DNA of 50,883 bases, from IMG/VR virus record IMGVR_UViG_2874962485_000005; one strand, given 5' to 3'. The stretch comes from a virus (Duplodnaviria; Heunggongvirae; Uroviricota; Caudoviricetes). The notes under the pieces were generated by a model. The model saw only the letters and a list, made by a program, of their open reading frames with translations. It ran no database searches and was not told where the DNA came from. Of the stretch, positions 29,151-31,410 are shown piece by piece. How positions within the stretch are numbered: position 1 is the stretch's first letter; every line of letters begins with the position of its first letter. The position numbers and the translations under genes are program-made.

Positions 29151-31410
29151 AGGCAGGGCGTAGTCGGACTATTTCCCTGCCTCTCCTCCCCGAACCGGAC
29201 GTGCACCTTTCAGCGCATCCGGCTCTCCATTTAAATGCTGGCGAACGCCATTGCCACTTCTGTAAAGCGCGATGTATACGTGTTTCTGGTCTCCGTCCTC
29301 AGATAGGGATTACCTTCGGGTAGCCGCCAGCGGAACAGCTTCTTGCCTTGCCCCACCAACCGGTACAGTATTTCGCCGCTGAGCTTGCCGTGATTGGTTT
29401 TACCAAATAAAACCCACGTTTTGCTCTGACCCGGTTTCGGTGATTTACACCACCACCTCATCAGGGAAGCGATACCTGTACGGTATTTGCGGGCCAGCCA
29501 GTGAGCCAGCTTCCAGAACACGACACGGTCGATATAACTGAAGACTTTGGCCTTAAAATCAACGAACTGATAGAACATGGCCCAGCCTTTCAGTTTTCGG
29601 TTGAGTTGTTCAGCCATATCGACTTTGCTTTCACTGTAGTTGCCTGATAACAGTGCTGTCAGCGATGCGGCGAAGTTTCTGGCTTTCTCCTGCGGGATCG
29701 TTGAGACCACTCGCATCTCGCCATAACGACTGCGTTTGCGAATGATCCTGTGCCCCAGAAAGATAAAGCCGTCATTAACATGGGTGATTTTAGTCTTATC
29801 CATGTTCAGCCTGAGTTTCAGACTGCCTTCGAGCACACCCCGACACTCCTCCCTGATGGCTTCCGCCTGTGCTTTGGTGCCTTTGACGATGAGGACAAAA
29901 TCATCGGCATAGCGGCAGTACGCCACCGCGGGTTTCCACTGCCAGTTTTCTCTGACCGCCGTACTTCGGCCCCGTTGGATACTGTTATTCCAGTACCACC
30001 GATCTTTTCTGGCTTTCCCGCTCAGGTAGCGCTCATGCAGGTATTGATCGAACTCATTCAGCATGATGTTCGATAATAGCGGCGATATAACACCGCCCTG
30101 TGGCACACCTTCACTGGCCGCCCGAAAGAGACCGACATCGATATGTCCCGCCTTGATGGTTTTCCACAGCAGAGTCATGAAACGTGCGTCACTGATCCTG
30201 CGGCGTACAGCCTTCATCAGCAGTCGATGATGTACGGTGTCGAAGTAACTGGACAGGTCGCCTTCAATCACCCAGCGTCCCCGGGTTTCACCACAGTCTG
30301 TGAGCTGTAATTTCACCGTGCGGATCGCGTGGTGGACACTGCGCTCAGGCCGGAAGCCATATGAGAGCGTATGAAAATCACTCTCCCATATCGGCTCCAT
30401 CGCCATCAGCATGGCCCGCTGAACAATACGATCCCGCAACGCGGGGATACCCAGTGGTCGCAGTTTGCCGTTGCTTTTAGGGATGTAAACCCGTCTGGCG
30501 GGCAAGGGCTGGTAGTGGCCTGAGAGTAATTCATCCCTGAGGATTTGCAGCTCAACAGCCAGTCTGGCCTGTAGCATTGTTTTGTTCACGCCATCAACGC
30601 CGGGGGTATGGGCCCCCTTTGATGAAAGCGTGATCCGCGCCGCTTCAGCCAGCCATTCTGGTTGTGTTATCAGACGCAGCAGCCGTTGAATCCGTAGGGA
30701 CGGATCGGTGGCTGCCCATGTGGCAAGCTTGCGTTGCATTTCGCTGATTATCAAAGGTCTTCACCTCGTTAGGTCAGTTAATTCACGTCGCAAACACATT
30801 CAAACTGCTTCCCTTCGCCATGTAATGGGCTTTCCCCATCGCGGACTACTACGGAAGCTCCGCCAGCCAGCGCGTCATCGGAGCCATGCCCCCTTAACAT
30901 CCGTCGCTGACCTTCCCCGGTTTACCTGCCTGGACTCAGGCATACTGAGGAGGCTGCCCGTCGCACTCTTTATCCTTGCTTGCCGCAAGTTGGCAGAAGT
31001 CAGCAACGCAAGTGTGATAGACGCTGCTGCCCCGGTGTTTCGCATACATGTCAAAACACCTTCGACCGGCAGTGCTTACGTATCACTGCCAGTTCCTCCT
31101 GCACGGCCTGTCAGATCACGTAGGCCGTGGTGACGTTTTCAACCCACAGAGGCGGATTAACGGGTTCATGTTCTTCAGCCTTTCAGTACTTAACCTTGAG
31201 GATCATCTCGGCTTAGTGATCTCGCCTCAATCCCCGTTGTCAGCGGGTTACATCACCCTGCGGGCATGCCGCAGGTCACTGCCGCTCAGGTTCTCCACCG
31301 TCACACCCGGTGGGATTGTTGGGTTTCTCATCGTGAGTTACCGGTTCAATATTCCAGACAGACTCGCGGTTCATTTAAGCATCCATGCCCGCCCTGAACT
31401 CCGGGCACAC
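29151..31410 (-). mobile_element. Group II intron (~2.26 kb) inserted in IS911-like orfB
   Basis: 5' end GTGTGCCCGG at the exon break; domain V-like GAGCCGGATGCGCTGAAAGGTGCACGTCCGGTTC just 3' of the RT ORF; IS911 reading frame resumes at 29150. Confidence 0.75.
29231..30754 (-). CDS. Group II intron reverse transcriptase/maturase
   Basis: 507-aa ORF with RT motifs incl. YADD (CRYADDFVLIV) and a C-terminal maturase-like region. Confidence 0.85.
   Translation of the reverse strand: MIISEMQRKLATWAATDPSLRIQRLLRLITQPEWLAEAARITLSSKGAHTPGVDGVNKTMLQARLAVELQILRDELLSGHYQPLPARRVYIPKSNGKLRPLGIPALRDRIVQRAMLMAMEPIWESDFHTLSYGFRPERSVHHAIRTVKLQLTDCGETRGRWVIEGDLSSYFDTVHHRLLMKAVRRRISDARFMTLLWKTIKAGHIDVGLFRAASEGVPQGGVISPLLSNIMLNEFDQYLHERYLSGKARKDRWYWNNSIQRGRSTAVRENWQWKPAVAYCRYADDFVLIVKGTKAQAEAIREECRGVLEGSLKLRLNMDKTKITHVNDGFIFLGHRIIRKRSRYGEMRVVSTIPQEKARNFAASLTALLSGNYSESKVDMAEQLNRKLKGWAMFYQFVDFKAKVFSYIDRVVFWKLAHWLARKYRTGIASLMRWWCKSPKPGQSKTWVLFGKTNHGKLSGEILYRLVGQGKKLFRWRLPEGNPYLRTETRNTYTSRFTEVAMAFASI

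Follow-up and report, generated by a model that had tools for sequence, protein, structure and literature searches.

The window analysed here, a 50,883-nt stretch of viral DNA, carries on its minus strand a reverse transcriptase (RT) gene lodged within an IS911 transposase gene. This raises the question of whether the feature is a complete group II intron, as a preliminary description of the locus had proposed, and whether it may still be mobile, using IS911-like DNA as a homing site. The features located are collected in Table 1. The reading favoured here, and held with high confidence, is that the locus holds the catalogued class A intron E.c.I4 (= S.f.I1), a ribozyme and RT retroelement that lives in IS3-family transposase genes, in a copy that is structurally intact.

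Table 1. Positions in the window of the intron, its components and the elements that house or flank it.
Feature	Position	Strand	Remarks
Group II intron, copy of E.c.I4 / S.f.I1	29141..31410	-	2270 nt; assigned from sequence and exon-frame restoration
Domain I	30916..31405	-	intron nt 6-495; closing helix CCCG/CGGG; RNAalifold consensus, 45 introns
Domain II	30862..30915	-	intron nt 496-549; covarying helices
Domain III	30807..30858	-	intron nt 553-604; three nested helices
Domain IVa hairpin AGGU-GAAG-ACCU	30755..30766	-	holds the Shine-Dalgarno sequence directly upstream of the TTG start
Intron-encoded protein (IEP) ORF	29231..30754	-	507 aa and stop; RT, X/maturase and C-terminal extension, no endonuclease (En) domain
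Domain V	29192..29225	-	34 nt; AGC triad, GAAA loop, 2-nt bulge; Rfam RF00029
Domain VI	29143..29189	-	bulged branch-point A at 29147 (predicted); Rfam alignment
EBS2 5'-ACGUC-3'	31132..31136	-	intron nt 275-279; loop of GGGU/ACC hairpin
EBS1 5'-UGUAUG-3' and the A directly 5'	31043..31049	-	intron nt 363-368 and nt 362; loop of GGUGUUU/AAACACC hairpin
5' exon recognition sequence, IS911 orfB	31411..31423	-	IBS2 GAUGU 31423-31419; IBS1 CCUAUA 31416-31411
+1 U of 3' exon (delta'/IBS3 position)	29140..29140	-	T in 52 of 53 related insertion sites
Host IS911	28654..34879	-	full length, two interruptions; 3-bp target duplication AGA
Putative IS66-family element in IS911 orfA	31993..34691	-	in the intron's orientation; about 2.7 kb, between IS911 left end and intron

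Boundaries and encoded protein

The GTGTG reported at the exon break was located at 31410-31406 on the minus strand, and the intron closes with ...CUCUAC, the last base being 29141, so that its ends, GUGUG and CUAC, have the 5' GUGYG and 3' AY of group II introns. A GUGYG start is present in every row of the family alignment of relatives, and of the 65 boundaries assigned among related introns, 63 coincide with the homologous start or lie slightly upstream. When 31411 is joined to 29140, the IS911 OrfB frame (...VWCGDVTY, the junction, and a further 17 residues...) is regained exactly and without a stop codon, the predicted ligated-exon junction being ...GACCUAUA|UCUGGAC.... The earlier claim that the intron ends just before the IS911 frame resumes thus held as regards the exact rejoining of the frame, but the 3' boundary given with it, 29151, fell 10 nt short of the true end.

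The 507-aa uninterrupted RT with a YADD motif was likewise confirmed. The ORF begins at a TTG codon, a start common to 59 of 67 loci, and contains no internal stop codons. Its product matched the Pfam families RVT_1 (1.5e-34) and GIIM (1.3e-10) and scored 340.9 bits against the NCBIfam group II RT/maturase equivalog TIGR04416 (cutoff 300), with LtrA (5g2x) as the best solved-structure match (E=2.2e-52). YADD occupies residues 282-285 (window 29911-29900) and GDLSSYFD residues 165-172, the catalytic aspartates being kept. Alignment with 66 relatives revealed zero deviations at the 234 columns that are at least 95% conserved. A Pfam scan of the IEP returned no HNH family, and neither a Cys pair nor an H-N-H motif was found in the C-terminal 92 residues, including the approximately 81 that follow the X domain.

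Conceivably, such an RT could belong to a retron or a defence-associated system, with the hairpin resembling domain V being coincidental, and models for these systems did return weak, sub-threshold matches. However, the scores lie far under the respective cutoffs (Retron St85, 54 bits vs 235; Drt3a, 51.5 vs 200; Drt2, 47.9 vs 390), whereas the group II equivalog model is above its own. The protein also has a maturase domain, the RT is flanked by intron RNA and IS911 exons, the full ribozyme covaries and excision is exact and frame-restoring. This reading, the chance of which is negligible, is refuted; the RT here is not a defence system.

Ribozyme structure and exon recognition

The structural core was examined by means of an RNAalifold consensus of 45 introns, in which domains I-III comprise 145 pairs in 26 helices. 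Paired cells amounted to 97.3%, compared with 35-42% in slid controls, and changes on both sides were evident at 100 pairs, compared with 32-43 when slid; the observed covariation was reached in none of 500 shuffles. Compensatory changes are present in most helices of domain I. In domain II they occur at 8 of the 10 pairs of the outer helix, where 98.9% of cells are paired, and covariation is evident in the inner 3-pair helix as well. The helices of domain III have approximately 99% of cells paired and compensatory change at 9 pairs. Every consensus helix can be formed by the window sequence. Because the IEP scores 340.9 bits against TIGR04416 and covariation in domains I-III is strong, chance resemblance is excluded, and the feature is a genuine group II intron.

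In domain IVa, GAGGUGAAGACCU is nearly invariant across the 45 introns, and the hairpin is, by analogy with Ll.LtrB, a putative site of IEP binding and autoregulation. Domain V starts 6 nt past the TAA stop of the ORF, in keeping with the original observation of a domain V-like sequence immediately 3' of the reading frame (29225-29192). Together with domain VI it matches Rfam RF00029 at 29227-29141 with 64.9 bits (E=1.4e-10), above the gathering score of 40, and its stem shows a G-C to U-A compensatory change among relatives. The predicted branch-point A, which is the 7th nucleotide from the 3' end, is left unpaired throughout the 45 sequences and has covarying pairs on either side, the consensus helix of domain VI having compensatory changes at 4 pairs. 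Structural modelling of domains I-VI, the check that the preliminary description had suggested, therefore recovered domains I, V and VI, and the intron is complete, with all six domains and an intact RT/maturase in sense orientation in IS911 orfB.

Completeness of this kind could be a matter of appearance only, the copy being a decayed fossil that is dead for splicing or reverse transcription; indeed, some E.c.I4 copies have disrupted ORFs (E. coli SMS-3-5, S. flexneri 2457T; PMC3522654). Here, however, the ORF is uninterrupted and its product is identical to WP_001189111.1 across the 502 aa annotated by RefSeq, the conserved columns are without deviation, all consensus helices are formable, and both the domain V triad and the branch-point A are present. 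At the sequence level the idea of a fossil is essentially refuted, and it is considered very improbable.

The intron's means of recognising its 5' exon were sought by comparing intron loops with target sequences. EBS2 pairs with IBS2 (positions -13 to -9) at 5 of 5 positions in the present site. Over 44 loci this pairing was the top run of alignment columns against exon positions, with 96% paired (212 of 220 pairs, the mean after shuffling being 201.4); the observed value was reached in none of 2000 intron/target shuffles, and one locus, L026, is fully compensatory. EBS1 pairs with IBS1 at 5 of 6 positions, the mismatch being at -5. Its covariation is seen at locus L021, where a UGGC target faces a GCCA loop, and at L038, L045 and L028, which have A opposite U at -2; across the 44 loci the observed pairing was reached in 5 of 2000 shuffles. 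The A directly 5' of EBS1 (A362), which is invariant, faces the +1 U in 43 of 44 loci and is a candidate partner in a delta-delta' pair. The IBS2-IBS1 stretch encodes D-V-T-Y and the first base of an Ile codon.

Several other candidates for these elements were rejected. Intron nt 263-269 (UGUGGGU) form a perfect 7-bp Watson-Crick/GU complement of ACCUAUA, the sole such site in domains I-III. As EBS1, this segment was rejected on two grounds: its GGGU pairs with ACC in the covarying hairpin that presents EBS2, and relatives read UGAGGG or UAUGGG, which are unable to pair with the near-invariant A at -3 and the invariant U at -4. The loop at nt 328-336 (AUACGUAAG) was rejected as EBS2 on the basis of inconsistent target pairing, the alignment being inspected by eye, and a score below that of the chosen EBS columns. 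Columns 173-178 and 716-721 also scored highly against positions -4 to -9, and represent chance complementarity between invariant sequences, columns 716-721 being the Shine-Dalgarno sequence.

Host insertion sequence and mobility

The host IS911 is bounded by the inverted repeats TGAAGTGG at 28654 and CCACTTCA at 34872-34879, with AGA flanking both sides, and encodes an OrfB with an rve domain. Its exons around the intron extend over 31411-31992 and 28654-29140. The insertion point lies in the codon directly 3' of D-V-T-Y, between its first and second bases; D-V-T-Y is the motif that contains the transposase's first catalytic Asp. The flanking pair of pseudogenes labelled 'partial IS3 family transposase' are the two parts of a single, intron-split IS911 orfB as opposed to products of decay. 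The second interruption has the ends GTAAGCGGCTC...GAGCCGGTTAC and an 8-bp duplication, ATTGTGGA, at 31985-31992 and 34692-34699. Its assignment to the IS66 family is supported indirectly, by PGAP 'IS66 family' annotations that adjoin the intron copy of strain EC958 rather than the element in the window. Since this insertion separates the IS911 left end from the intron, transcription into the intron may require read-through. A scan of 28600-35000 for promoters and terminators revealed sites no more numerous than in shuffled sequence.

With respect to the neighbouring DNA, plasmid matches to 28100-28653 extended over only 33-36 nt (the initial ∼36 nt of the query), with none in phages, and comparison of 27880-28660 with E. 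coli matched only the first ∼266 nt, which contain IS1. A feature more unusual than the intron itself lies nearby, namely a very small island that is linked to a tRNA and contains three perfect T7 promoters.

The present copy is competent in sequence, and the following scheme is proposed for its life cycle. The intron would be transcribed within an IS911, or read-through, transcript, and the IEP, translated from unspliced RNA, would then bind the intron. Attack on the 5' splice site by the domain VI bulged A, followed by exon ligation, would restore orfB. The resulting lariat-IEP particle could reverse-splice into DNA carrying GAYNUNACNUAYN|U, with cDNA synthesis probably primed by the nascent strand at a replication fork, because the IEP is without an En domain. 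Points that appear to weigh against such activity are the EBS1-IBS1 mismatch at -5, the interruption of IS911 upstream, the lack of a promoter signal above chance in the scanned region and the presence of six empty sites.

Those six sites, in IS600 and IS629-like elements, are homologous to the occupied one, and all are empty within the window, which contains a single intron copy. The empty IS629-like site (17262-17275) matches, from 16 nt before to 6 nt after the insertion point, a site that holds an identical intron elsewhere, and each of the five IS600 sites matches IBS1 at 6 of 6 and IBS2 at 4 of 5 positions. A similar disparity was described for S. flexneri Sf301, which has 1 intron copy against 42 free sites (Leclercq & Cordaux, PMC3522654). 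These observations, along with the IS66-family insertion upstream, could be explained if the intron were a sequence-intact but passive passenger, which was carried in by IS911 or by DNA acquired horizontally and has undergone no retrohoming in this genome, perhaps because of poor transcription, counter-selection or unsuitable host conditions. Such an explanation, together with the causes offered for it, is plausible, although it was accorded somewhat less than an even chance. Against it, low occupancy is expected also of an active intron under negative selection (PMC3522654), and 51 kb covers only a small part of a genome. Moreover, both S. flexneri SFBU1023 and E. coli EC958 have a copy with 0 mismatches at the homologous position of another, IS629-like element of the IS3 family. 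Taken with the integrity of the sequence, identical copies in other IS types show that the lineage has moved very recently. The original suggestion that the present copy may still be mobile is reasonable and fits the evidence.

The choice of target site seems to extend well beyond this locus. Among 57 related introns, from gamma-, alpha- and delta-proteobacteria and other phyla (IEP identity 66-100%), 51 share the site after the first base of the codon following D-x-T-Y/F/W, the block with the first catalytic Asp. According to our reading of the junction peptides, the host transposases resemble those of the IS3 family, of IS481-like elements and, in a single case, of an IS6-like element. The EBS1 and EBS2 loops change in step with the target, as in L021 and in L026, the locus in an IS6-like gene. 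It is tentatively suggested, as an idea that is itself rather doubtful, that the E.c.I4 lineage is a specialised parasite of DDE transposase genes, which homes on a protein-constrained catalytic motif and makes transposase production dependent on splicing. Were this true, the supply of homing sites would be inexhaustible and would be transferred horizontally with the IS hosts; and, since transposase production would depend on splicing, the intron could serve as a conditional switch on transposition of the host IS. Clade-wide homing to the catalytic D-x-T-Y block, with covarying EBS loops, would then represent a tidy case of a retroelement exploiting a protein-constrained motif.

Identity and comparison with known introns

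Comparison with catalogued enterobacterial group II introns, which the preliminary description had recommended, revealed 2265 of 2270 identical positions (99.8%; 5 substitutions) with NC_009801:4848623-4850893 of strain E24377A, the copy E.c.I4-2b (PMC3522654 Table S3). Additionally, many copies in E. coli and S. flexneri genomes and plasmids, with ltrA annotated by RefSeq, are 100% identical over 2270 nt, and full-length matches occur in 1874 of the 5426 complete E. coli genomes searched, with as many as 20 in one genome, as well as in 1519 plasmids. In view of this near-identity and of the identical annotated copies, the element is, as judged from its sequence, the already known, named and RefSeq-annotated E.c.I4 / S.f.I1. 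The database naming rule calls for >95% nucleotide identity to a named intron (PMC3552965), a level exceeded here as measured against the published copy E.c.I4-2b. Assignment of E.c.I4 to bacterial class A is taken from the literature (PMC3522654 Table S2; PMC3552965). IS911 is among its documented targets, with IS629, ISEc16 and ISEc31 (PMC3522654), in agreement with the proposal that IS911-like DNA serves as a homing site. Given that the intron already has a name in the group II intron database, is annotated in RefSeq and has been the subject of population genomics (PMC3522654), the locus carries little weight as a discovery, and its practical value lies in annotation.

The present copy shares with E.c.I4 / S.f.I1 its length (2270 nt, as against 2271 calculated from published coordinates), an IS3-family transposase gene as target, an IEP without En and an ORF annotated as ltrA (WP_001189111.1). 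There are no differences of substance beyond the 5 substitutions relative to E.c.I4-2b and the fact that the host IS911 is also cut by the IS66-family element.

Ll.LtrB of Lactococcus lactis (class ML, IIA), with its protein LtrA, is the same kind of element, and presumably employs the same splicing and reverse-splicing chemistry. The order EBS2...EBS1 in the present intron, with an A directly 5' of EBS1 facing the +1 U, resembles the IIA delta-delta' layout; class A itself appears, from the column layout of Table 1 in PMC4424553, to be filed under the IIA RNA type. However, LtrA is a protein of 599 aa with D and En domains that undertakes target-primed reverse transcription after bottom-strand cleavage, whereas the 507-aa IEP here is without En and so must require a different primer; En-minus introns are generally primed at the replication fork (PMC4424553). 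The host genes differ also, that of Ll.LtrB encoding a relaxase and that of the present intron a transposase. RmInt1 of Sinorhizobium meliloti is, like the present intron, an element with an En-minus RT/maturase that homes into an insertion sequence, but differs from it in the class of its IEP (class D), in its C-terminal signature, and in its target IS and site.

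Boundaries, ribozyme and protein of the intron

On the minus strand (read 5' to 3'), IS911 orfB reads ...GGUGAUGUGACCUAUA until the group II intron begins with GUGUGCCCGG at window position 31410; the intron extends over 2270 nt to ...CUCUUACUCUAC at 29141, where the exon resumes with UCUGGACGGGUAAG. Since the OrfB frame is uninterrupted once 31411 is joined to 29140, the true 3' end is 29141; the preliminary description had located the intron itself correctly, but its low coordinate, 29151, does not stand. Its uninterrupted 507-aa ORF (30754-29231, minus strand, TTG start) is present, as are the YADD motif (residues 282-285) and a domain V directly 3' of the ORF, beginning 6 nt past the stop codon. 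A search of the whole window returned domains V and VI as a match to Rfam RF00029 at 29227-29141 (minus strand), with 64.9 bits against a gathering score of 40 and E=1.4e-10.

Eighty loci encoding relatives of the RT/maturase (66-100% identity; L-numbers below) were taken from GTDB species representatives, and intron ends were set in 65. When the 5' 656 nt of the window intron were aligned with 44 relatives, RNAalifold returned a consensus structure comprising 145 pairs, arranged in 26 helices. Standard pairs occupied 97.3% of cells, as opposed to 35-42% when the 3' partners were slid by 1-3 columns, and both-sided changes were seen at 100 pairs as opposed to 32-43 on sliding; none of 500 shuffles reached the observed covariation values. 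Domains V and VI are almost invariant, yet contain compensatory changes, such as G-C to U-A in the domain V stem, and the branch-point A, seventh nucleotide counting back from the 3' splice site (window 29147), is bulged in 45/45 sequences.

The Pfam hits of the window protein are RVT_1 (1.5e-34) and GIIM (1.3e-10), the domain of group II maturases; an H-N-H domain is not among them. The protein scores 340.9 bits with the NCBIfam equivalog TIGR04416 'group II intron reverse transcriptase/maturase' (cutoff 300 bits) and falls far under the cutoffs of retron and DRT models, while PADLOC gave generic RT hits only. The nearest solved structure is that of LtrA (E=2.2e-52), in which GDIKGCFD aligns with the RT3 motif GDLSSYFD of the window protein, and YVRYADDFIISVKG with YCRYADDFVLIVKG. 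In an alignment of 66 full-length relatives, 234 columns are conserved at 95% or more, and the window protein keeps the consensus residue in every one of them. With domains I, V and VI recovered and no catalytic residue lost, neither of the defects named in advance as telling against the preliminary description was found; its observation is confirmed, and its interpretation as a complete and possibly still mobile intron is supported.

The RefSeq start of ltrA is an ATG 5 codons downstream of TTG 30754 (30754-30740, minus strand), giving a 502-aa protein (WP_001189111.1) to which the window protein is identical across the 502 aa. The five residues ahead of that start are conserved among relatives, a TTG start is common to 59 of 67 loci, and a near-invariant GAGGUGAAGACCU hairpin precedes it. 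The 507-aa reading from TTG 30754, a codon placed after this conserved Shine-Dalgarno hairpin, is probably correct.

Target site and its recognition

In 51 of the 57 relatives with enough flank, the intron interrupts a DDE transposase gene at the same point, past the first base of the codon after D-(I/V/F/L)-T/S-Y/F/W, the motif that holds the first catalytic Asp. Relatives at this shared D-x-T-Y codon site (loci L003-L082) are spread across many phyla. Five of the six exceptions are probably mis-set 5' ends. The sixth, L026 (564-2840 of its own locus), lies at the same position in a transposase, between ...WRMDETY and IKVKGKW..., with a matching EBS2; its host is, by the look of the peptide, presumably an IS6-type transposase.

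Each alignment column was scanned against each exon position for EBS1 and EBS2, the intron loops that pair with the 5' exon sequences IBS1 and IBS2 (exon positions are counted from the insertion point). The top antiparallel run joined intron nt 275-279 (ACGUC, in a hairpin loop) to exon -13 to -9 (GAUGU), with 96% of cells paired; this is EBS2/IBS2. The L026 target GAUGA is matched by UCAUC at EBS2, which is fully compensating. The hairpin GGUGUUU/AAACACC presents EBS1, UGUAUG (nt 363-368), in its loop; EBS1 is paired with CCUAUA at 5/6 positions, and exon -5, which is the wobble position of the Thr codon, pairs in just half of the loci. The EBS1 assignment was made because of covariation, in that the L021 target UGGC faces a loop reading GCCA, and in L038, L045 and L028 an A faces the U at -2. 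Random reassignment of targets to introns gave fewer pairs, the observed value being reached in 0/2000 cases for EBS2 and in 5/2000 for EBS1 taken together with the base next to it. Another tempting EBS1 candidate, at nt 263-269, was discarded on the alignment of relatives.

The base 5' of EBS1 is invariably A, and exon +1 is T at 52/53 sites. The layout is like that of the delta-delta' pair of IIA introns, the RNA type under which class A appears to be filed in one review table, going by its column layout as extracted (PMC4424553); with both positions invariant, the pairing itself is an inference.

Mobility, host element and neighbouring island

The intron sequence is intact by every test applied. 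A copy with 0 mismatches lies in a different, IS629-like IS3-family element (target GCUGAUUUUACUUACG followed by UCAGCA) in S. flexneri SFBU1023 and E. coli EC958, which shows very recent movement of the lineage. Counting against activity in the source genome are a promoter scan that gave nothing above chance and six empty homologous sites in the window. The IS629-like one has the sequence of the site occupied elsewhere, from 16 nt before the insertion point to 6 nt after it, the five IS600 sites match IBS1 at 6/6 and IBS2 at 4/5 positions, and all six keep the +1 T and 9-10 of 11 EBS/IBS pairs. This agrees with S. flexneri Sf301, which has 1 copy against 42 free sites (PMC3522654). Since it has no En domain, the window intron should, by analogy, depend on the replication-fork primers established for En-minus introns (PMC4424553).

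The host IS911 is full length but interrupted twice, by the intron and by an IS66-family element with a clean duplication. The latter adds 2.7 kb between the intron and the left end of IS911, which also counts against activity. As orfA is split by this element, transposase cannot be made from the window IS911, regardless of the intron.

Iteron-like repeat arrays of 10-12 bp lie at 28445-28653 and 34880-35090 (AGGGTCTCTCT x4, AGGGCCATAG x3 and, in opposite orientation, TAGAGAGACC(A/T) x5), alongside an AT-rich stretch with repeated TTAATCTTTAATTGTGTCTTTAAGTTAACTTTAAGT; the IS911 insertion point is inside the last array. Searches that covered the iteron stretch hit no more than its first ~36 nt in plasmids and no more than the adjoining IS1 sequence in complete genomes of E. 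coli, and gave no match in phages.

Three T7 promoters, ~120 bp apart where 0 are expected by chance, lie directly downstream of an integrase-like ORF and are aimed at the region that now carries IS911 and the intron. The uninterrupted island in E. coli FT130 holds only tRNA-Gly, an integrase, a non-coding stretch of ~1.2 kb that contains two perfect T7 promoters, and a gene for a KilA-N protein. Of 5426 complete E. coli genomes, 91 have related sequence, in matches listed without annotation, and a targeted literature search found no description of the island. Possibly the island is a minimal satellite, or a decoy, that responds to a T7-like RNA polymerase. This small tRNA-linked island hit by IS911 is more unusual than the intron, which is of low interest. 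The window as a whole looks like a Shigella-type chromosome region full of prophage remnants and IS elements.

Features of the intron, of one relative and of the window (window coordinates unless stated)
Feature	Position	Strand	Basis or remark
Domain I	closing helix 6-9/492-495 (intron numbering)		consensus structure
Domain II	intron nt 496-549		consensus structure
Domain III	intron nt 553-604		consensus structure
Domain IVa Shine-Dalgarno hairpin	intron nt 645-656		consensus structure
L021 intron	840-3114 (own locus)		TGG-C target, compensating EBS1
Host IS911	28654-34879	-	3-bp duplication AGA
IS66-family element in IS911 orfA	31993-34691	- (intron's orientation)	clean 8-bp target duplication ATTGTGGA
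Its three ORFs	34638-33961, 33961-33614, 33594-32023	-	
Empty site, IS629-like IS3-family element with ALIL pseudoknot	17262-17275	+	homology to insertion point
Empty site, IS600 (PGAP name)	49931-49944	+	homology to insertion point
Empty sites, IS600 (PGAP name)	38880-38893, 26915-26928, 12969-12982, 993-1006	-	homology to insertion point
T7 class III promoter consensus TAATACGACTCACTATAGGG, three perfect 20/20 copies	35280-35299, 35400-35419, 35521-35540	-	
Integrase-like ORF, 534 aa	35629-37233	-	E. coli FT130 counterpart annotated 'site-specific integrase'
tRNA cluster	37351-37658	-	adjoins integrase-like ORF
isrK and C4 antisense RNA pair (phage immunity-type region), two inverted copies	8012-8200, 39743-39944	+, -	
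CssrB and sok antitoxin RNA	3408-3590; 42891-43065	-; -	

Relation to known introns

The 2270-nt intron is matched over its full length in 1519 plasmids and, among 5426 complete E. coli genomes, in 1874, at as many as 20 places in one genome. Many of these copies are 100% identical, those on S. flexneri large plasmids among them; their annotation reads 'ltrA: group II intron reverse transcriptase/maturase', flanked on either side by an 'IS3 family transposase' fragment. One survey called class A introns scarce (PMC7306698), yet the GTDB species representatives yielded 308 stretches that encode relatives. The link between E.c.I4 and IS3 elements is already published. E.c.I4 is listed as class A (Table S2, PMC3522654), and E.c.I4 and S.f.I1 have 99%-identical class A ORFs without a recognisable D/En region (Toro & Martinez-Abarca, PMC3552965). 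The E. coli E24377A copy, E.c.I4-2b (NC_009801:4848623-4850893; Table S3, PMC3522654), is identical to the window intron at 2265/2270 positions and has the same exon junctions; this identity and the class A listing mark the window intron, as judged by its sequence, as an element already known and named.
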